A DNA stretch of 64,000 nucleotides from an uncultured Anaerolineales bacterium (GCA_964622645.1 CAZUSV010000004.1:9290-73289), one strand, 5' to 3'; positions 4,268-57,286 are shown, counted from the first letter of the stretch. Translations and numbers: made by a program. The notes: generated from the letters alone by a model not told the origin.

Positions 4268-4323
4268 CCCGAAAAAAGGGTGTGCGCAGGGGCCGCGGCC
4301 CCTGCGCACACCCTTTTTTCGGG
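4268..4323. repeat. 56-nt perfect palindrome, family-B-like hairpin
   Basis: cccgaaaaaagggtgtgcgcaggggccgcggcccctgcgcacacccttttttcggg. Same architecture as the cgaaaataggggg..cccctattttcg elements elsewhere in the window. Confidence 0.8.
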
Positions 4324-10244: not shown

Positions 10245-10300
10245 CTTACCTCCAGGGGGAATTTTAGAGTGATTATACCGCGATCCCTTGCTTGATTTTT

Positions 10301-10357
10301 GGGTTCTCTAGGAATTCCCGTGGTAATGTGAGCTACCTCGGTGATTCCTAGAGAGCC
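10301..10357. repeat. Family A repeat with both arms and no core
   Basis: gggttctctaggaattcccgtggtaat..cctcggtgattcctagagagcc. Confidence 0.7.
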
Positions 10358-10370
10358 GATTTTTGTCATC

Positions 10371-10399
10371 TTGACACAGCATTACTGACGTGATAATCT
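10371..10399 (+). promoter_or_regulatory. Sigma70-like promoter of the cold-shock gene
   Basis: TTGACA, 17-nt spacer, then TGaTAATCT (extended -10). Confidence 0.55.
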
Positions 10400-10464
10400 T
10401 TCGCCGAAATGCTTAGCTGACCTGAACTCAGCGAAAAAAAGCACATAGAATGGAGTAAGTAAGA

Positions 10465-10674
10465 ATGGACGAACGTATAGTTGGAACTGTAAAATGGTTC
10501 AATGCCCGCAAGGGTTATGGCTTTATCGGCCGCGATGATGGAGATGATGTCTTTGTGCACTTTTCTGCCATCACCATGGAAGGCTACCGCCGCTTGGACG
10601 AAGGCCAGGATGTTGAATTCACTATCGAAGAAGGCCCTAAAGGTGTGCAAGCCGCTAAGGTAATCCCTGTCTAA
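10465..10674 (+). CDS. Cold-shock protein (CspA family)
   Basis: KGYGFI (RNP1) and VFVHFS (RNP2) motifs. 69 aa. Confidence 0.95.
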
Positions 10675-10695
10675 TATGGTTTGCTTTATAAAACT

Positions 10696-10727
10696 CACAG
10701 AGCCGCCATGTGGCGGCTCTGTGGTTT
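10696..10727 (+). terminator. Terminator after csp
   Basis: 12-bp stem cacagagccgcc/ggcggctctgtg with loop atgt, then gttt. Confidence 0.7.
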
Positions 10728-20541: not shown

Positions 20542-20587
20542 GATAAAAAGGGTGTGGGGCGGTCGAGCCGCCCCACACCCTTTTTAT
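20542..20587. terminator. Bidirectional hairpin terminator, family-B-like
   Basis: gataaaaagggtgtggggcggtcgagccgccccacaccctttttatc. Downstream of the LysM lipoprotein gene. Confidence 0.65.
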
Positions 20588-20608
20588 CGGAGTCTTATTT
20601 TATAAACT

Positions 20609-29050: not shown

Positions 29051-29159
29051 GGCTCTCTAGGAATCGACGTGGGACCTCCCAGATTTAGGGGTGAACGGGG
29101 TGCTCCACACCCCGTTCACCCCTAAATCTGGGGGATTAACCCGACAATTCCTGGAGACC
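29051..29159. repeat. Family A repeat, full copy with core hairpin
   Basis: ggctctctaggaatcgacgtgggacctcccagatttaggggtgaacggggtgctccacaccccgttcacccctaaatctgggggattaacccgacaattcctggagacc. Confidence 0.85.
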
Positions 29160-42076: not shown

Positions 42077-42185
42077 GGTCTCCAGGAATTGCCGGGGTAA
42101 TACCCCAGATTTAGGGGTGAATGGGGTGCTCCGTACCCCATTCACCCTTAAATCTGGGAGGTCCCACGTCGATTCATAGAGAGCC
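42077..42185. repeat. Family A repeat, full copy, inverted relative to 29051-29159
   Basis: ggtctccaggaattgccggggtaataccccagatttaggggtgaatggggtgctccgtaccccattcacccttaaatctgggaggtcccacgtcgattcatagagagcc. Confidence 0.85.
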
Positions 42186-45945: not shown

Positions 45946-46058
45946 CTTGACAATGTCGACTTTCTAGACGAGAAGCCCGAAATATGGGGTTACAGGGGTG
46001 CTCCGCACCCCTGTAACCCCATATTTTCGGAAGTTCTCGCGCAGTTGACATTGTCGAA
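45946..46058. repeat. Family B repeat, full copy in inverted orientation
   Basis: cttgacaatgtcgac..gagaagcccgaaatatggggttacaggggtgctccgcacccctgtaaccccatattttcggaagttctcgcg..gacattgtcgaa. Confidence 0.8.
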
Positions 46059-49641: not shown

Positions 49642-51228
49642 TTATCCGAAGGGATAGGGGTTGGGTAATTCAACTTCCAGCACGAAACCCTCACCAGAAG
49701 ATGATCTGATTTGCATACGACCGTCCAATAGGGCCACTCGCTCACTGATACCAACCAGACCAAAATGATGGTTTGCAGAGAGGTCTGCCAGATCAGGTAA
49801 TATTTCAATGCCATATCCATCATCCACAAAACGGATCAATAGGTGACCCTCGGGTGAATGCGTCAGTGTCAATTGCACCTCATTTGCATTGGCATGCTTG
49901 GCAACATTGCCAAGACCCTCTTGAATAATCCTAAATATTGAGAGTTCCATCAGTTCTGGCAGGCGTCCCAACGTTTGATCGATTTCTATTTTTGTCGTAA
50001 CTCCGCTTCGCTCCTCCCATTCTTGTACCAGAGAGGGAATTGCAGAAGAAAGTCCGTGGTTGTCGATTGTTGGAGGGCGCAGGTCACGGCATAATTGGCG
50101 CAAATCGCTTACAACCTGGCGAATTGCCTCACGGATTTCATGCAACTCGTGACGTTGTTCATCGGAGTTTTCATCACTCTCTACATCTTCCAGCCGGTAA
50201 TTTACTCCGAGCAAATCCTGTATCACTGAATCGTGTAACTCACGCGCCAGGGCTTTGCGTTCTTCTTCTCTATCGGTCATCAAGCGCCTCTGTGTTTCCT
50301 GCAGAGCTGCATTTAAGCGATCCATGGCTTTGACCTGCTTGCTTAACTTTTCGATTAGCTGTCGGTTAAGCAAGTCGCTGGCTTCTAGCGTCTCATGCAG
50401 TTGAGCCTGTTCCCGAAAGAGTTCTTCAGTGTGTTGTTGGGCTTTGTGGAAGCTTTCCAGTGCCCACATGACGGGTGTGACCTGTTCCTGGTTACTGGCA
50501 CCCACAATTAATTCTACAACTTCACGGGGAGTGAAATCAGACGTATATCGGTCTGCTACTAATCGACCTTCATATAACACCAGGATACGGTCGGTGATAT
50601 TGAACAGATGCTTCAGATTATCACTACAAACAACCACTCCCAAACCCTGTTGAGCTTGTTCGCGGACCCGCTCAAGTAAGATTTCCTGGCGATAGTAACT
50701 GAGATTGGATAAGATATCATCTAAGAGCAATAGACGAGGTGGTTGACAGAATGCTCGCATTAAGGCAATCAAATAACGTTGTTCGTTGGTTAAGTTTGCA
50801 ATCGGCTCATAAATTAAGTTTTCAGGTAAACCGAAGTTTGCCAGTAAATCTCTAGCCCTCTCATACATCAGTATCCAATTTTGTAGTCCGAGCAAAGGGA
50901 ATTTTATTATCTCGTGACCCAAGAAAATGTTTTGGATAACATTGAGCTGATCAATAACTTGAGATGGCTGGTAGACTAGTTCAACCCCCTCTTGGCGAGC
51001 ATGTGAGGAAGATACAAAATGTGTAGGTTGCTCTTTCAAAAAAAAGGTCCCCTGAGAAGGCTGAGTGGCACCCCCGATCAGGTGTAATAAAGTAGATTTT
51101 CCTGCGCCACGCCGACCGACCAAACCAAGAATTTCGCCTCGTTGCAATTCGAAGGTGATATTGTCCAGCACCTTTAGATTACCATAAGATTTGGTTAGTG
51201 ATTGAACACGTAACAAAGAATCAGACAT
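49642..51228 (-). CDS. Fusion protein: degenerate ABC nucleotide-binding domain + coiled coil + HisKA_3 + HATPase_c histidine kinase (soluble)
   Basis: The N-terminal ~245 aa are ABC-ATPase-like (GRRGAGKST, ELVYQ, NIFLGHE). The signature is LTNEQ, Walker B is LLLLDD-I, and there is no H-loop His. The C-terminal part has H-box ERKALARELHDSVIQ, N-box EGLGNVAKHA, DDGYGI and GLVGISER. No TM helix. Confidence 0.85.
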   Translation of the reverse strand: MSDSLLRVQSLTKSYGNLKVLDNITFELQRGEILGLVGRRGAGKSTLLHLIGGATQPSQGTFFLKEQPTHFVSSSHARQEGVELVYQPSQVIDQLNVIQNIFLGHEIIKFPLLGLQNWILMYERARDLLANFGLPENLIYEPIANLTNEQRYLIALMRAFCQPPRLLLLDDILSNLSYYRQEILLERVREQAQQGLGVVVCSDNLKHLFNITDRILVLYEGRLVADRYTSDFTPREVVELIVGASNQEQVTPVMWALESFHKAQQHTEELFREQAQLHETLEASDLLNRQLIEKLSKQVKAMDRLNAALQETQRRLMTDREEERKALARELHDSVIQDLLGVNYRLEDVESDENSDEQRHELHEIREAIRQVVSDLRQLCRDLRPPTIDNHGLSSAIPSLVQEWEERSGVTTKIEIDQTLGRLPELMELSIFRIIQEGLGNVAKHANANEVQLTLTHSPEGHLLIRFVDDGYGIEILPDLADLSANHHFGLVGISERVALLDGRMQIRSSSGEGFVLEVELPNPYPFG

Positions 51229-51308
51229 ACGATTTCATCACTTACTATCCTCACGAGATGATATTCTATTTTACCGCGCGATATTCCCAAAATGCATTCT
51301 ACTATTGC

Positions 51309-51334
51309 GGGCCTCTAGGAATTCCCGTGTTAAT
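51309..51334. repeat. Family A repeat, solo arm, between the permease and the NBD-kinase gene
   Basis: gggcctctaggaattcccgtgttaat. Overlaps the permease stop codon. Confidence 0.55.
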
Positions 51335-52514
51335 TTCCTGTTTTACGAGTAGTCACATCAAAGATAACCGCGGCTGCAAGTACAATCGCTCTTACAATGT
51401 ATTGATAGGATATGTCAATCCCCATTAAATTCATGCCACTCGTAAGCGATGTCATGACCAAGGCACCAATGAGCGAGCCAATCACAGTGCCTACACCACC
51501 CGCTGCAGATACACCACCGACAAAAGCTGCAGCGATAGCATCCAGTTCGAACAAGGTTCCTGCAGTGGTAGTGGCGGATTGTAGTCGGGCTGCAAATAGC
51601 ATTCCTGAAAGAGCGGCCAGCATTCCCATCGATCCAAATACAATATGCGTTATTCGCTTGACACTAATACCGCTTAATTCAGCTGCCTCAGGATTCCCAC
51701 CGACGGCGTAAATGTGTCTGCCCAGGACTGTCTTGGTGGTGATGAAATTATAGAGAATAGCCACAATTAATACAACCACTGCAGTCCATGAAAGGCCCTG
51801 GTATCCGGCTAATATCCAGGCAACCCAGCCAATTAGAGCTGAGATGAGCACCAGTCTGAGGACGAACATGCCGTTTGACATAACCTCAATTTGGTTTTTT
51901 TTCATTCTGCTACGGCTGATCAATTCACTCGATGCGAACAAAATAATGCCTAGCAATCCAAGGATCAAAGTGAATTTATGCAGATCAGGAAATATCTCAA
52001 TATTTGGAATATCTGAAATAAACCCATTTCCAATTGCATTGAATGCATCGTTTGGGATGACGATTGTGCCAGTAGCACGGGTGGAGAGTTGCAAGGCTCC
52101 CCTGTAACCTAACCAGCCTGCCAGGGTGGCGACGAAGGCTGGAATCCCTAGATTAGCCACTAAGAAGGATGTAAATAAACCGGCGATTATGCCCAAACCC
52201 AGAACAAGCGGTATTACCAGATAAACTGGCAGATTCCAGTTTACCATGGCGATCGCTGCCACAGCTCCAAGGAAACCGGCTAAAAAGCCAACTGATAAGT
52301 CAATATGCCGGATGATAATCACCAGGGTCATACCGACCGCCAAAACGGCAATATATCCGGTCTGGTTGACCAGATTAACCAGATTTCTTGATGAAAGGAA
52401 TAGTCCGTCCGTAGTAATAGTAAAGACTCCCATGATTACGAATAAGGCGATGAACATGCCGTAATCACGGATGTTTTCACGGAACAATTTGCGCATCTCA
52501 TTGAAAAGTGTCAT
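51330..52514 (-). CDS. CUT2 sugar ABC transporter permease (XylH-like, 394 aa)
   Basis: Polytopic BPD_transp_2-type permease. Its size and sequence are similar to xylose/ribose-type permeases. Confidence 0.9.
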   Translation of the reverse strand: MTLFNEMRKLFRENIRDYGMFIALFVIMGVFTITTDGLFLSSRNLVNLVNQTGYIAVLAVGMTLVIIIRHIDLSVGFLAGFLGAVAAIAMVNWNLPVYLVIPLVLGLGIIAGLFTSFLVANLGIPAFVATLAGWLGYRGALQLSTRATGTIVIPNDAFNAIGNGFISDIPNIEIFPDLHKFTLILGLLGIILFASSELISRSRMKKNQIEVMSNGMFVLRLVLISALIGWVAWILAGYQGLSWTAVVVLIVAILYNFITTKTVLGRHIYAVGGNPEAAELSGISVKRITHIVFGSMGMLAALSGMLFAARLQSATTTAGTLFELDAIAAAFVGGVSAAGGVGTVIGSLIGALVMTSLTSGMNLMGIDISYQYIVRAIVLAAAVIFDVTTRKTGN

Positions 52515-52531
52515 TTCGAGCCTCCTCGCGC

Positions 52532-53329
52532 CTATCCAGCAACCTGTACTTCTCTGAAGTCGTCTCTAGCGCCTATCATGTAGGCTACCACCCTTTCACG
52601 GAACTCGTTTATATCGCCTTCTACAGCGGTATCGCAGACTTTGCGTCCTTGGCGGAGTACGATCATTCGGTCACTGACTCGGTAGATATCTTCCAGGCGA
52701 TGACTTATGATGATGATTGATGCGCCTTGCGCTTTGAGCTCCTTTACTAATTCAAGTACCTGGTCAATCGCTGCTACGCTCAAAGCCGCTGTGGGTTCGT
52801 CCATGATGATCACTTTGGCGTTGAACGCTGTCGCGCGCGCGATGGCGATTGCCTGGCGCTGACCACCAGAGAGTCTTTCTACGATTTGGCGAACAGATTG
52901 GATGTTGATTCTAAGGCGATTTAGCAGACTTACAGTTTCCTGCTCCATGTGACGAAAATCCAAGACCCCAATTGGACCCAATTTCATTTGAACCACTTCT
53001 CGTCCCATGAAAACATTCGCCGCAACGTCTAGATTGTTGGCCAGGGCATAATCCTGATAAACCATCTCAATTCCCTGGCGACGCGCATCCATAGGATTGG
53101 TAATGTATGCCTTCTCCCCCTCCAGGAGAATATCTCCGTCGTCAGGGATATACGCTCCGCTGAGCACCTTCATGAGAGTGGATTTTCCAGCAGCGTTGTC
53201 TCCGACTAACCCCAACACTTCATTTTGTTGTAAAGCCAGGTCTACCCCACGTAATGCCTGGACAGCGCCAAAGTTCTTTTTGATGTTTCGCATTTCAACG
53301 ACTGGCGTGTTTTCTGGTGTAGATGGCAT
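52532..53329 (-). CDS. CUT2-type sugar ABC transporter ATP-binding protein, single NBD (265 aa)
   Basis: Intact motifs: [39 protein letters not shown]. Confidence 0.92.
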
Positions 53330-53370
53330 GGGTACATCCTTTTGCTAGTTATAAATGCAAGTCTAATTAG

Positions 53371-53483
53371 TTCGACAATGTCACATTCGCGAGAACTTCC
53401 GAAAATAGGGGGTGGCAGGGGTGCTGAGCACCCCTGCCACCCCCTATTTTCGGGCTTCTCGTCTGTAATTTGACATTGTCAAG
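53371..53483. repeat. Family B repeat, full copy, inside the SBP-ATPase intercistronic gap
   Basis: ttcgacaatgtcacattcgcgagaacttccgaaaatagggggtggcaggggtgctgagcacccctgccaccccctattttcgggcttctcg..tgacattgtcaag. Confidence 0.85.
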
Positions 53484-53585
53484 TTAGAAATTCATAATTC
53501 GTTAGTGCGAGAAATTTTCCTGAATTATAAAGGAATAGTGATGGATAATCCATCACTATTCCTTTTGATGAGTAAAACTCTTTAT

Positions 53586-55802
53586 TTATCCGTCCAATCC
53601 GGTGAACTCACTGGCATCCCAGTATCCAGAGTCAATGATTGCTTCCTGGACGTTGTCCTGGTCAACCGAGATCACTTCAGAAGGTTTGGCGGGGACATCG
53701 ATTACGCCATTGTTGTAGGTGTTGGTTTCGGGAGGTGCGCCGCCTTCGAGATAAGCAACGGCAGCGGCGATGGCATCACCAACCAGTGTGCGGACATCCT
53801 TCAGGACGGTCATGGACTGCTTGCCGTCAATGATGTACTGCACGGAAGCGATCTCAGCGTCCTGACCGGTGACCACGTAGCTGGCAACATCCGCATCGGC
53901 GCCAAAGGCATCGGCAATAGCGCGAGCGGTGCCGTCATTGGGCGCCAGGATGAACACATCGCCCTTGTCGTCAGCGCCGGCAGCAGTCAGATGAGATTCT
54001 GCCAGGGTCTTGGCGGTGTCGAAATCCCATTCGGTGGTGACCTGGCCGATGATCTGGCCCATCTCTTCACGGGTCAGTTCAGCCTTGTCCTGCAGGGTAA
54101 CCGCTTCGCTGGAGTTGACGACGTAGAAGGTGCCGTCAGCGATCTTGGGCTGCAGCACATTCCAGGCGCCTTCGAAGAACAGGAAAGCGTTGTTGTCAGA
54201 TGCCGCTCCGGCATACAGGTAGAGCGGGTTGCCAGACCCGGAGGCTTTGTCGACCAGGTATTGAGCCTGGGCAGCGCCAACAGCGATGCTATCGAAGGTG
54301 ACGTAGTAGTCCACTGCCTCGGTATCGCGGATCAGACGGTCGTAGGAGACCACTTTCACACCAGCCGAGCGGGCGGCTTCTGCAGCTGCGGCTGCGGCGG
54401 TACCGTCATGCGGGGTGATGATGATAACTTCGACGCCCTTGGTGATCAGGTTTTCGACGTTGGTCCTTTCTTTAGCGGAATCCCCTTCGCTGAAGAGGAT
54501 CTCGACCTCATAGCCAGCTTCGGCGAAAGCGTCTTTGAAGCGGGTCTCATCCTGGATCCAGCGAGGTTCTTCCCTGGTCGGTAAAACAATGCCAACTGTA
54601 CCAGACACTTCCGGAGCCATGCCCATCTCATCCAATCCGGTGAATTCACTGGCATCCCAGTATCCAGAGTCGATGATCGCTTCCTGGACGTTGTCCTGGT
54701 CAACCGAGATCACTTCAGAAGGTTTGGCGGGGACATCGATTACGCCATTGTTGTAGGTGTTGGTTTCGGGAGGTGCGCCGCCTTCGAGATAAGCAACGGC
54801 AGCGGCGATGGCATCACCAACCAGTGTGCGGACATCCTTCAGGACGGTCATGGACTGCTTGCCGTCAATGATGTACTGCACGGAAGCGATCTCAGCGTCC
54901 TGACCGGTGACCACGTAGCTGGCAACATCCGCATCGGCGCCAAAGGCATCGGCAATAGCGCGAGCGGTGCCGTCATTGGGCGCCAGGATGAACACATCGC
55001 CCTTGTCGTCAGCGCCGGCAGCAGTCAGATGAGATTCTGCCAGGGTCTTGGCGGTGTCGAAATCCCATTCGGTGGTGACCTGGCCGATGATCTGGCCCAT
55101 CTCTTCACGGGTCAGTTCAGCCTTGTCCTGCAGGGTAACCGCTTCGCTGGAGTTGACGACGTAGAAGGTGCCGTCAGCGATCTTGGGCTGCAGCACATTC
55201 CAGGCGCCTTCGAAGAACAGGAAAGCGTTGTTGTCAGATGCCGCTCCGGCATACAGGTAGAGCGGGTTGCCAGACCCGGAGGCTTTGTCGACCAGGTATT
55301 GAGCCTGGGCAGCGCCAACAGCGATGCTATCGAAGGTGACGTAGTAGTCCACTGCCTCGGTATCGCGGATCAGACGGTCGTAGGAGACCACTTTCACACC
55401 AGCCGAGCGGGCGGCTTCTGCAGCTGCGGCTGCGGCGGTACCGTCATGCGGGGTGATGATGATAACTTCGACGCCCTTGGTGATCAGGTTTTCGACATTT
55501 GTCTTTTCCTTGGCTGAGTCGCCCTCGCTGAAGAGGATCTCGACCTCATAGCCAGCTTCAGCGAAAGCGTCTTTGAAGCGGGTCTCATCCTGGATCCAGC
55601 GCGGTTCTTCCCTGGTCGGCAGAACAACACCAACGGTACCTGCCATCACAGCGGGTTCCTCTTCTGGAGCTGCTTCTTCTGGAGCTGCCTCTTCTAGGGC
55701 TGCCTCTTCTGGGGCTTGCGGCTGGCAAGCTGTGAGGACTAATCCGACCAGTACAACCAGCGAAACCAGCCATAAAACCGAACGTAAATTTTTCTTAGAC
55801 AT
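53586..55802 (-). CDS. Lipoprotein with two tandem XylF-like (D-xylose/ChvE-type) periplasmic sugar-binding domains
   Basis: Start at ATG 55802 after SD aaggaga. Signal peptide with lipobox LTAC and an (E/A/P)-rich linker. Two ~346-aa copies resemble XylF (REEPRWIQDE.., YDRLI, NNGVIDVP). Confidence 0.85.
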   Translation of the reverse strand: MSKKNLRSVLWLVSLVVLVGLVLTACQPQAPEEAALEEAAPEEAAPEEEPAVMAGTVGVVLPTREEPRWIQDETRFKDAFAEAGYEVEILFSEGDSAKEKTNVENLITKGVEVIIITPHDGTAAAAAAEAARSAGVKVVSYDRLIRDTEAVDYYVTFDSIAVGAAQAQYLVDKASGSGNPLYLYAGAASDNNAFLFFEGAWNVLQPKIADGTFYVVNSSEAVTLQDKAELTREEMGQIIGQVTTEWDFDTAKTLAESHLTAAGADDKGDVFILAPNDGTARAIADAFGADADVASYVVTGQDAEIASVQYIIDGKQSMTVLKDVRTLVGDAIAAAVAYLEGGAPPETNTYNNGVIDVPAKPSEVISVDQDNVQEAIIDSGYWDASEFTGLDEMGMAPEVSGTVGIVLPTREEPRWIQDETRFKDAFAEAGYEVEILFSEGDSAKERTNVENLITKGVEVIIITPHDGTAAAAAAEAARSAGVKVVSYDRLIRDTEAVDYYVTFDSIAVGAAQAQYLVDKASGSGNPLYLYAGAASDNNAFLFFEGAWNVLQPKIADGTFYVVNSSEAVTLQDKAELTREEMGQIIGQVTTEWDFDTAKTLAESHLTAAGADDKGDVFILAPNDGTARAIADAFGADADVASYVVTGQDAEIASVQYIIDGKQSMTVLKDVRTLVGDAIAAAVAYLEGGAPPETNTYNNGVIDVPAKPSEVISVDQDNVQEAIIDSGYWDASEFTGLDG
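53593..55638. repeat. In-frame tandem duplication, 2 x 1038 bp, within the binding-protein gene
   Basis: Offset is exactly 1038 bp. The central ~0.8 kb (53641-54458 vs 54679-55496) appears identical on spot checks. The flanks carry many mostly synonymous differences. Confidence 0.9.
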
Positions 55803-56095
55803 ATTCTTCTCCTTGAAATGCTTTATTTGAATCAAAATAGTACTGAATATTCAATTATCAGTTAAGTTATCTGGGGAACAGCACCTCCTCAATATTAGTT
55901 CTTAATGAATTCAAACTGTGAAGGGCAGGTGTGGTATCTGGTAGTAATTGTCAAAGCACACCAGATCCAATCAAACCGATTTTCATCGGTTTCTGAAACG
56001 GTAGGCAATTTTATCAAGTGTTGGGACCGGGCTCCCCCTCTTTTCCCCCCAATGATTTAGGGGATTTCCCCTAAAAATTATCCAAAGGTGAATTG

Positions 56096-56202
56096 TCTCT
56101 CTCGGAATCGCCGGGGCAGCTCCCAGATGGGGGGGGGTGGAGCGTGCTCTGCACACCCCACACCCCCAAATCTGGACATTACCATGGAATTCCTAGAGAC
56201 CC
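56096..56202. repeat. Family A repeat, full variant, in the divergent promoter region
   Basis: gtctctctcggaatcgccggggcagctcccagatgggggggggtggagcgtgctctgcacaccccacacccccaaatctggacattaccatggaattcctagagaccc. Confidence 0.8.
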
Positions 56203-56242
56203 TTATTTCAGTCCTGTAATATAGTGGTAAGATTAGATCGCT

Positions 56243-57286
56243 ATGGAAAAATCACGCATTTTGCTGGCGGATGATCACGAAGTTGTCCGGGCAGGCATTC
56301 AAAAAGTTGTTGAAGATGCCCAAAATTTACAGATTGTTGGCGAGGTAGAAGATGGGATATCGCTGCTGGAGAGCCTGGAACTAACCCGCCCAGAGTGTTT
56401 ACTAGTTGATATCAGCATGCCAGCGTTTGATCCACTGAAAACTATCCCAGAAATTCGTGCTAGATACCCAAAATTAAAGATCCTGGTCGTCAGTGCCTAT
56501 GACGATGATGTATACGTTCATGGCATGTTAGAAGCTGGAGTCGATGGATATCATCTCAAAGACCAACCACTCAGTGACCTGAAATTGGCTATCCAACGTG
56601 TGCTGAACGGTGAGCGTTGGATTTCAAGTTCTTTGATCTCGAAACTAGTAGACAAACCCAAGCCATCCGCTGAGACACCAATCCTGACCTCCAGGCAAAT
56701 CGAAATTCTCCGTTTGCTTCGAGATGGTTTAGATAATAACGGCATTGCTTTGGAGATGAATCTAAGTGTCAAGACGATCGAAAACCATCTAACCCGGATT
56801 TATAAACAGCTTGGTGTACGCAGTCGATTAGAAGCTAGCAACTATGTAAATCAGCATCCTGAAATATTGGGAATCAAGGGGTATCGTGTTATTCAGCAAC
56901 GAAAAAATTTAAACCGACCATATGGTGTTTCAATCCTGCTTGTCGATGATAATCGCCGCTATTTACAACAGCTTCAGCGCATTTTAGGCAAAGTGGTTCC
57001 CCGGGCTGGCTTATACGAAGCAAACGACCTGAATGAGGCAGTTTATATTGCCAAGAATGTACAACCTCAACTTGTTTTGGTTGATGTTGTACTTGGTGAA
57101 GAAGATGGCATTCGCTGTGCGCGTCGAATCAAGGCTGTATCTGGACAATCGCGTATCGTAATGATAAGTGCATACCCAGACCGCGAATTTCATCGATTAA
57201 GCATTGAAGCTGGAGCAGTTGCCTTTCTGGATAAAAAGGATCTGGATGCATCCGCGATACAGCAAGTGGTGGAAGATCTGCTTTGA
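56243..57286 (+). CDS. NarL/LuxR-family response regulator with an extra C-terminal receiver (REC-HTH_LuxR-REC)
   Basis: REC1: LLADDH, LLVDISMP, VVSAY, HLKD. HTH: LTSRQIEILRLL..SVKTIENHLTRIYKQLGV. REC2: LLVDDN, LVLVDVVL, MISAY, FLDKK. Confidence 0.88.
   Translation: MEKSRILLADDHEVVRAGIQKVVEDAQNLQIVGEVEDGISLLESLELTRPECLLVDISMPAFDPLKTIPEIRARYPKLKILVVSAYDDDVYVHGMLEAGVDGYHLKDQPLSDLKLAIQRVLNGERWISSSLISKLVDKPKPSAETPILTSRQIEILRLLRDGLDNNGIALEMNLSVKTIENHLTRIYKQLGVRSRLEASNYVNQHPEILGIKGYRVIQQRKNLNRPYGVSILLVDDNRRYLQQLQRILGKVVPRAGLYEANDLNEAVYIAKNVQPQLVLVDVVLGEEDGIRCARRIKAVSGQSRIVMISAYPDREFHRLSIEAGAVAFLDKKDLDASAIQQVVEDLL

Follow-up and report, generated by a model that had tools for sequence, protein, structure and literature searches.

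A degenerate ABC nucleotide-binding domain as predicted input domain of histidine kinases encoded with CUT2 sugar importers in Anaerolineae

The window, a 64,000-nt stretch of DNA from an uncultured Anaerolineales bacterium in which all coordinates are counted from the first letter, harbors a sugar importer operon whose last gene codes for a predicted cytoplasmic HisKA_3 histidine kinase (HK), with a degenerate nucleotide-binding domain (NBD) of the ATP-binding cassette (ABC) type as its sole input domain. Comparison of related loci indicates that this NBD::HK fusion forms a conserved module of the Anaerolineae together with a REC-GerE-REC response regulator, a ChvE/XylF-like CUT2 importer and a candidate operator of the form TAGGGG-N3-5-CCCCTA. 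The best explanation, towards which we lean without strong commitment, is that the kinase NBDs dock on the permease dimer, report its ligand or conformational state, and signal through His332 to the regulator and the palindrome.

The kinase fusion and its genomic neighborhood

Open reading frame (ORF) listing recovered four genes on the minus strand and one divergent plus-strand gene, the regulator (Table 1), and all five ORFs of an earlier, sequence-only reading of this DNA were found at the coordinates it gave. That reading had taken the 528 amino acid (aa) product of the last operon gene for a fusion of an ABC-type NBD with HisKA_3 and HATPase_c domains, and Pfam matches all three: ABC_tran at aa 21-171 (80.9 bits against a PF00005 cut-off of 25), HisKA_3 at aa 323-386 (51.2 bits) and HATPase_c at aa 429-523 (38 bits), the last two likewise above their cut-offs, which places the protein among the HisKA_3 kinases and its N-terminus among the ABC ATPases. 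The fold agrees with the sequence, as the N-terminal domain retrieves CbiO, LptB and MalK in Foldseek (E ~1e-18; TMt 0.75-0.88), with no solved protein uniting an NBD with a kinase among its matches. The N-terminal ~245 aa had further been considered a paralogue of the transporter ATPase, and the first 250 aa do share 29% identity with it (E 2e-40). The protein, already noted as soluble in that reading, is predicted to be so because it is without a hydrophobic segment.

In an AlphaFold2 (AF2) model built on 77 homologues, the NBD is confidently predicted (pLDDT ~88-90) and is followed by a single unbroken helix (residues 247-352), which bears His332; beyond it lie the second DHp helix and then the catalytic domain. 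The coiled coil that had been proposed between NBD and kinase is rendered in this model as one continuous helix. The linker is the most strongly conserved stretch of the protein, with residues P252, W255, A256, L257 and E258 invariant in the family alignment. Furthermore, the kinase core is intact: the family shows no variation at H332, D333 and Q337 (with the DxxxQ phosphatase motif of HisKA_3) or in the N and G boxes.

Nearly all of the best 120 clusters of homologues (53-100% identity) share the three-domain architecture, and those that are named are annotated as "ATP-binding cassette domain-containing protein" from Chloroflexi, Anaerolineae or Anaerolineales. An exhaustive search over 1.84 billion representatives returned a handful of full-length clusters at 50% identity (P0122, P0123, P0124 and P0127), beyond which its list consists of ordinary tandem CUT2 ATPases. 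A scan of GTDB, with one genome per species, yielded 503 related stretches, some of which may be ordinary HisKA_3 kinases picked up by the H-box pattern; the best 80 of these match residues ~1-527, derive almost entirely from Anaerolineae metagenome-assembled genomes and were used as loci for synteny analysis. No NCBIfam model exists for this architecture. Fusions of this kind can arise artificially, by chimeric assembly or by a frameshift joining an ATPase gene to a kinase gene, and the superficially similar P0145 is such a chimera: considered as a distant family member, this singleton on a 1976-bp contig was rejected, each of its halves being 97% identical to a different, unrelated protein. 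For the window protein such an origin is extremely improbable, as the identical 528-aa protein is found on 12 contigs from independent metagenomes and its architecture, with a highly conserved junction, recurs at full length in nearly all of the best 120 clusters and in the 80 best GTDB loci. By these sequence comparisons the NBD::HK family, carried by more than 100 protein clusters and by at least 80 Anaerolineae genomes at species level, is real, small and lineage-restricted.

The state of the NBD was assessed with a motif table of 81 family members, the positions of which were confirmed against NBDs in the PDB. The window kinase retains a Walker A motif (GRRGAGKST) and the Q-loop glutamine (Q87); its signature reads LTNEQ, its Walker B LLLLD-D, and its H-loop (SDNL) is without the histidine, such that the LSGGQ, post-Walker B Glu and H-loop His of a catalytically competent ABC site are all missing. 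The same pattern extends through the family. Nearly all 81 members retain Walker A (GxxGxGK[ST]) and the Gln of the Q-loop; the signature takes the form L[ST][DN]EQ, with LSGGQ found in none; Walker B is followed by Asp in most members and by Glu in only a few, mostly of the ATPase-less class C described below; and the H-loop His is replaced in 81/81 members (S[DE][ND]L). A distant member, P0124, keeps D-E and LSGEQ. These patterns indicate that the NBD is under selection as a non-hydrolysing domain which usually still binds nucleotide. It probably binds nucleotide in most members, since Walker A is kept, and should hydrolyse ATP poorly or not at all. Its post-Q-loop segment (NIFLGRE) is close to that of CUT2 ATPases; in ABC importers the segment after the Q-loop faces the membrane domain. 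Against the equivalogs of the CUT2 tandem ATPases, proteins of ~500 aa with a fused pair of NBDs and with cut-offs of 699-850 bits, the kinase NBD scores 148 bits and the 265-aa transport ATPase of the operon 212 bits, in both cases over the N-terminal half only, and both are classed by these scores as CUT2-related single NBDs.

When the window proteins were compared by tblastn against the 80 loci, the REC-GerE-REC regulator or parts of a CUT2 transporter were found in 77, the three exceptions having very short flanks, so that the expected linkage of homologous fusions to ABC permeases is observed. Among the loci whose flanks both reach 7 kb or more, transporter parts are present in 27/27 and the regulator in 24/27. 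Identities to the window proteins range from 49 to 83% for the regulator, 70 to 87% for the substrate-binding protein (SBP) and 65 to 84% for the permease. The gene order is permuted into at least five arrangements (< and > denote gene direction): regulator< kinase> SBP ATPase permease in the largest clade; kinase> regulator< SBP ATPase permease; SBP ATPase permease kinase (regulator<); the window-type order regulator< SBP single-NBD-ATPase permease kinase; and class C. The kinase gene follows a permease gene within 400 nt in 30/80 loci. The persistence of the same content in shuffled order provides strong evidence for a functional unit.

The regulator, previously described as REC-HTH-REC, is resolved by Pfam as REC-GerE-REC. 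The DD, D, S and K residues, retained in both receivers, together with the GerE helix-turn-helix (HTH) place it in the NarL/FixJ group; its extra C-terminal receiver is atypical, has canonical residues and is conserved in 65 orthologues. This second receiver occurs throughout the family considered so far (family 1), and a second fusion family (family 2, below) is accompanied by a plain REC-GerE regulator. Alignment of seven orthologous regulator-SBP intergenic regions revealed the palindrome TAGGGG-N3-5-CCCCTA, with an A/T-rich spacer. It is present upstream of the SBP operon in 53/80 loci in any gene order, with one stray match in 1.15 Mb. From the palindrome to the SBP domain match downstream of it the distance is 210-770 nt in every case, whichever gene is on the other side; in class C it is found between the regulator gene and the operon containing the kinase. 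Among possible operators of the GerE-type regulator, we consider this palindrome the best candidate.

Class C, comprising loci L041, L043, L048, L052, L058 and L086, has an operon SBP'-permease'-NBD::HK without an ATPase gene, the ORFs having been checked in L086 and L052. The SBP' (~31% identity) and permease' (~33%) are different proteins from the SBP and permease of the other arrangements. No NBD other than that of the kinase was found at E<=1e-3 in L086 (21.6 kb), L043, L058 or L041, over 12-21 kb. The permease' retains an EAA coupling motif (GGNPEAARQAG) and its gene ends 16-148 nt ahead of the kinase gene. L048 and L052 encode an orthologous complete importer on the opposite flank, within an operon that starts with the regulator gene, and intermediate forms which include a single-NBD ATPase are found in L077 and L082. 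An acidic DVD in the EAA helix of permease' goes together with Arg88 beside the Q-loop of the kinase NBD, a combination that represents a single lineage event. Because the docking motif is intact and the kinase's NBD is the only one available, the class-C NBD is predicted to dock on permease', and this class, which is hard to explain otherwise, provides the strongest argument for docking.

Family 2 consists of proteins of ~840 aa with the architecture NBD-PAS x3-HisKA_3-HATPase_c, from several sources and with 42-90% identity (P0142, P0390-P0395). In L087 and L088 the kinase gene is immediately preceded by a REC-GerE gene and followed by the genes of a CUT2 importer (SBP, tandem ATPase and two permeases), and the P0395 locus contains the regulator and one divergent permease gene. 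The family-2 NBD shares 68% identity with NBD1 of P0399, a tandem ATPase apparently encoded on the same contig, and is only lightly degenerate, the H-loop His being replaced by Arg in P0142 and kept in P0393 and P0395. As family 2 is independent and shows the same linkage, the comparison indicates that a transporter NBD was recruited as kinase input at least twice, each time beside a transporter of the donor type.

Proposed docking on the permease and its alternatives

The sequence-only reading had suggested that the degenerate NBD could dock on the permease, alone or as a heterodimer with the 265-aa ATPase. The comparisons support this interpretation, in agreement with each of its refuting conditions that sequence analysis could address, although the heterodimer is disfavored. 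In the mechanism we favor, the kinase would dimerise through its DHp domain and thereby offer two NBDs, which would dock on the EAA coupling helices of the permease homodimer in place of the transport ATPase. Family-1 operons contain one permease gene, which therefore points to a homodimer, matching the two NBDs of the kinase dimer. In the window and most other loci the permease would be shared with the ATPase (in the window a homodimer of the 265-aa protein), and in class C the partner would be the dedicated paralogue permease'. Docking of the sugar-loaded SBP on the permease would change the NBD-NBD geometry, and the continuous NBD-to-DHp helix would turn this change into altered autophosphorylation or phosphatase activity at His332. 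The phosphorylated regulator would then bind the palindrome and change expression of the importer, with the kinase being autoregulated where its gene is in the same operon. The signal could have either sign, with the kinase switched on by ligand or flux, or switched on when the importer is idle, as in Pst/PhoR.

A related formulation, on which our judgement is evenly balanced, is that of a receptor shaped like an ABC importer, in which an SBP, a permease dimer and two catalytically dead NBDs wired to a kinase by a coiled coil would convert extracellular sugar binding into phosphorylation, by means of the conformational coupling inherent in the ABC transporter. The class-C complex would then be a dedicated, non-transporting receptor, and the window kinase would time-share the permease of a working importer.

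Several observations weigh against docking. Most loci also hold a complete ATPase, such that the permease would be shared by two NBD modules, an arrangement for which we know of no precedent. The acidic D/N-E in place of the signature GG should disfavor a canonical ATP-sandwich dimer, and in the distant member P0127 Walker A is wholly lost; nucleotide binding is therefore not essential to a mechanism shared by all members. The family-2 importer, with two different permeases and a tandem ATPase, is a poor fit to a symmetric dimer of kinase NBDs. Finally, a search for class-specific residues of the kinase NBD that might compensate for the changed EAA helix of permease' yielded 30 differences, scattered over the domain.

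The kinase NBD might instead pair with the NBD of a transport ATPase, in the window as a heterodimer with the 265-aa protein, and so read the ATPase cycle. With its one NBD, the 265-aa ATPase requires a partner; in the window clade, L077 and L082, a single operon encodes both a single-NBD ATPase and the NBD::HK; and the kinase H-loop (SSD) resembles that of the degenerate NBD2 of the tandem ATPases P0137 and P0399, such that the pair would mimic an asymmetric tandem. However, this pairing cannot be general, because most members occur beside self-sufficient tandem two-NBD ATPases or, in the class-C loci, without any ATPase within 12-21 kb. It would also leave no fully canonical ATP site, the kinase NBD being degenerate in both its catalytic residues and its signature, and the second NBD of the kinase dimer would be unpaired or would bridge two transporters. 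We regard such pairing as unlikely.

Less likely still is a free cytoplasmic sensor, responding to adenylates or energy state through ATP-dependent dimerisation, or to a metabolite, with the synteny reflecting co-regulation only. The solubility of the kinase and the conservation of Walker A and the Q-loop are consistent with such a sensor, as is the position of the kinase gene in the largest clade, outside the transporter operon and beside the regulator gene. It is at odds with the missing Walker A of P0127 and with the 30 loci in which the kinase gene is directly downstream of a permease gene, and it would leave the class-C SBP and permease, with an intact EAA motif, without any NBD. Moreover, family 2 took a copy of NBD1 from the adjacent ATPase, which is sensible only if transporter-specific surfaces matter.

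Importer genes and intergenic elements

Table 1. Coordinates of the features of the locus and of the family-2 fusion genes (the latter within their own loci)
Feature	Position	Strand	Basis
NBD::histidine kinase, 528 aa, soluble	49642..51228	-	ORF, Pfam, hydrophobicity, AF2
Degenerate ABC NBD of the kinase, aa 1-245	50494..51228	-	motif table of 81 members, PDB alignments, Foldseek
Conserved linker TPVxWALESxH..., continuous helix from NBD to DHp	50263..50493	-	family alignment, AF2
HisKA_3 DHp and HATPase_c catalytic domain	49660..50262	-	Pfam, alignment, AF2
GguB/XylH-like permease, 394 aa, BPD_transp_2, EAA coupling motif GGNPEAAELSGISVKR	51330..52514	-	Pfam, NCBIfam
Single-NBD ATPase, 265 aa, canonical catalytic motifs throughout	52532..53329	-	Pfam, NCBIfam
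Perfect hairpin, 27-nt arms, A-rich/T-rich flanks, between SBP and ATPase genes	53399..53453	.	hairpin scan
Second perfect hairpin, 18-nt arms, directly after SBP stop codon	53529..53565	.	hairpin scan
Lipoprotein (SBP), two fused ChvE/XylF-like sugar-binding domains, 738/749 aa	53586..55802/55835	-	ORF, Pfam
Imperfect palindrome of the sequence-only reading, probably chance	55842..55862	.	shuffles, orthologue comparison
GAGGAGGTG, instance of AGGAGGT core, ~80 nt upstream of SBP start	55882..55890	-	intergenic alignment
G-run/A-T/G-run element adjoining the palindrome, C-rich on the + strand	56033..56050	.	intergenic alignment
Conserved palindrome TTTAGGGGATTTCCCCTAAA, candidate operator	56056..56075	.	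intergenic alignment and loci scan
REC-GerE(HTH)-REC response regulator, 347 aa	56243..57286	+	Pfam, NCBIfam, alignment of 65 orthologues
Family-2 fusion gene, L087	914-3430		
Family-2 fusion gene, L088	1999-4491		

The importer had been described as XylFGH-like. A CUT2-type sugar importer is indeed encoded, but its SBP and permease score best against ChvE and GguB, the sister group of XylF and XylH, and all components fall below the NCBIfam equivalog cut-offs. The SBP contains two Peripla_BP_4 domains, and a single domain scores 268 bits against ChvE (cut-off 460) and 185 bits against XylF (cut-off 390); assignment to the ChvE equivalog was rejected, since the 522 bits obtained represent the sum of both domains. 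The permease scores 390 bits against GguB (cut-off 450). The importer families are thus nearest to ChvE-GguAB by sequence, at scores from which a substrate cannot be assigned.

The two SBP domains (copies at 55621-54629 and 54583-53591) derive from a 1038-bp tandem duplication and are 98.4% identical over 993 nt, with the central ~820 nt identical; the ATG at 55802 is preceded by AAGGAG. Mis-assembly was rejected as an explanation, as the domains are fused in frame in 20/20 other loci with two complete domains (L021, L025, L029, L030, L033, L034, L036, L037, L039, L041, L042, L053, L057, L065, L067, L071, L072, L076, L080 and L083). Within-gene DNA identity between the domains ranges from 78 to 99.8% and is often higher than that found between species, a pattern suggestive of recurrent duplication or of gene conversion. 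In L001-L004, which are short-read contigs obtained from other samples, the sequence breaks off at or near the SBP repeat.

The 265-aa ATPase contains one ABC_tran domain, whereas a classical two-NBD ATPase is encoded in most loci, that of L052 scoring 764 bits against GguA. The single-NBD ATPase of the window clade shares only 33-40% identity with NBD1 of the tandem ATPases in sister loci (L010, L013 and L016) while SBP and permease remain orthologous, and it would therefore reflect displacement rather than truncation. Among their carriers, the single-NBD ATPases are 75-84% identical, and L039, with a kinase from a distant clade, also has the cassette. It would seem that displacement or exchange of the ATPase gene took place independently of the other module genes. 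A further fusion of a sugar-importer ATPase with a regulator-type domain was observed in P0137 (680 aa), which joins a tandem two-NBD CUT2 ATPase to a C-terminal IclR_C effector-binding domain.

Upstream of the SBP gene, an AGGAGGT core, complementary to the 3' end of 16S rRNA, is invariant in 7/7 aligned regions ~80-120 nt before the SBP start. It is followed by no consistent start codon in the seven aligned relatives, and may represent a Stab-SD-like (Shine-Dalgarno) mRNA-stabilising or standby ribosome site. The imperfect 21-bp palindrome at 55842-55862, to which the sequence-only reading had drawn attention, is present with 8/10 arm pairs, but is not a conserved element: it occurs in 0/22 orthologous regulator-SBP intergenic regions and does not align in the closest relatives. 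Furthermore, at least one such palindrome arises in 17% of shuffles of the intergenic region and 45 are found in the 64-kb window, and it was rejected as an operator.

The larger of the two hairpins between the SBP and ATPase genes (53399-53453) is terminator- or REP-like (repetitive extragenic palindromic) and probably attenuates read-through; together, the pair suggests attenuation by which the SBP would be made in excess of the membrane components, a common arrangement in importer operons. This hairpin has counterparts elsewhere in the window, the family occupying 4268-4323, 20542-20588, 29078-29132, 42104-42158, 45980-46026, 53399-53453 and 56123-56175. These G-rich intergenic hairpins are mostly perfect, with 21-28-nt arms; many of them share GGGGTG-type cores and A-run/T-run flanks, and they look like REP elements or bidirectional terminators. 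Scans for promoter and terminator consensus sequences gave counts at or below shuffle expectation, and no Rfam RNA family was found in or near the locus; elsewhere in the window, the cspA thermoregulator model matches at 10286-10726 on the plus strand (84.6 bits; gathering score 78).

Relation to known systems

That a kinase may read a transporter is a known concept, of which BceAB-BceS of the Firmicutes is an example. There a kinase without a sensor domain of its own is known to read an ABC transporter through physical association, as is proposed here, and the regulator controls expression of the transporter itself. The Bce system, however, employs a separate intramembrane kinase with two transmembrane (TM) segments on the FtsX-type BceB, a separate active NBD (BceA) and an OmpR-type regulator, whereas here a soluble kinase is fused to an NBD and is associated with a BPD_transp_2, SBP-dependent importer and a GerE-type regulator. 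As such, the module does not belong to the Bce type, defined by its FtsX-type permease with a large extracellular domain, its two-TM kinase and its OmpR-type regulator, though it may work in the same way. In PstSCAB-PhoU-PhoR and MalK-MalT the signal likewise leaves an ABC importer through the cytoplasmic NBD, but the links are non-covalent, made by the adaptor PhoU or by the regulatory domain of the active ATPase MalK, rather than by a dedicated degenerate NBD paralogue forming the N-terminus of the kinase.

The logic of class C, with SBP'-permease'-NBD::HK encoded beside regulator-SBP-ATPase-permease, is that of UhpC-UhpB-UhpA, in which a transporter paralogue serves as receptor for a HisKA_3 kinase and a NarL-type regulator that induces the real transporter; UhpC is, however, a major facilitator superfamily (MFS) protein and UhpB a membrane kinase, with no ABC parts and no fusion. 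In Agrobacterium, ChvE both feeds a GguAB-type importer and acts on the VirA kinase, whose periplasmic domain it binds directly. The shared use of a ChvE-type SBP by a GguAB-type importer and a two-component kinase would be alike here, but as the kinase is without a periplasmic part, unlike VirA, its signal would have to cross the membrane via the permease. The degenerate NBDs of other ABC proteins (NBD2 of CUT2 ATPases, TAP1 and NBD1 of CFTR) similarly keep their nucleotide-binding residues and have lost the catalytic Glu/His or the signature. Such proteins pair a degenerate composite site with an active one; here, by contrast, degeneration affects the catalytic side as well as the signature within a single NBD, which is attached to a kinase.

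Covalent fusion of a transporter component to a histidine kinase is known from CbrA and CrbS, in which the membrane domain of an SLC5 secondary transporter is joined to the kinase via a STAC domain (PMC7096432, PMC5715377). The present family differs in that a primary transporter, of the ABC type, contributes its soluble ATPase domain to the fusion. A 2024 paper on links between transporters and receptors lists DctA-DcuS, BceAB-S and STAC/CbrA, and calls its own S-component/5TMR system the first prokaryotic case of a transceptor, without mention of an NBD-kinase architecture (PMC11109136). The sequence-only reading knew of no characterised example, and none was described in the literature searched (full text). 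As far as can be told, the novelty lies in the covalent NBD input, in the dedicated "receptor importer" of class C and in the conserved module.

If the proposed mechanism is true, the ABC NBD would be a new class of kinase input domain, and the module the first bacterial case in which NBD movement itself is the signal. To our knowledge, signaling from transporters to two-component systems is known only as non-covalent cases (Bce, Pst/PhoU/PhoR and DctA/DcuS), which are hard to dissect. The module would offer a minimal and genetically defined system of SBP, permease, NBD::kinase, regulator and operator in which transmembrane signaling via an ABC scaffold could be reconstituted and imaged, and would open the way to direct measurement of NBD opening and closing coupled to motion of the DHp helix. 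Its natural "sensor-only" (class C) and "shared-permease" versions could be compared, and its modular design could serve synthetic biosensors that draw on the large ligand repertoire of SBP-dependent importers. For the Anaerolineae, it would give a name and a function to a family which in several hundred genomes is annotated only as "ATP-binding cassette domain-containing protein" or "signal transduction histidine kinase".

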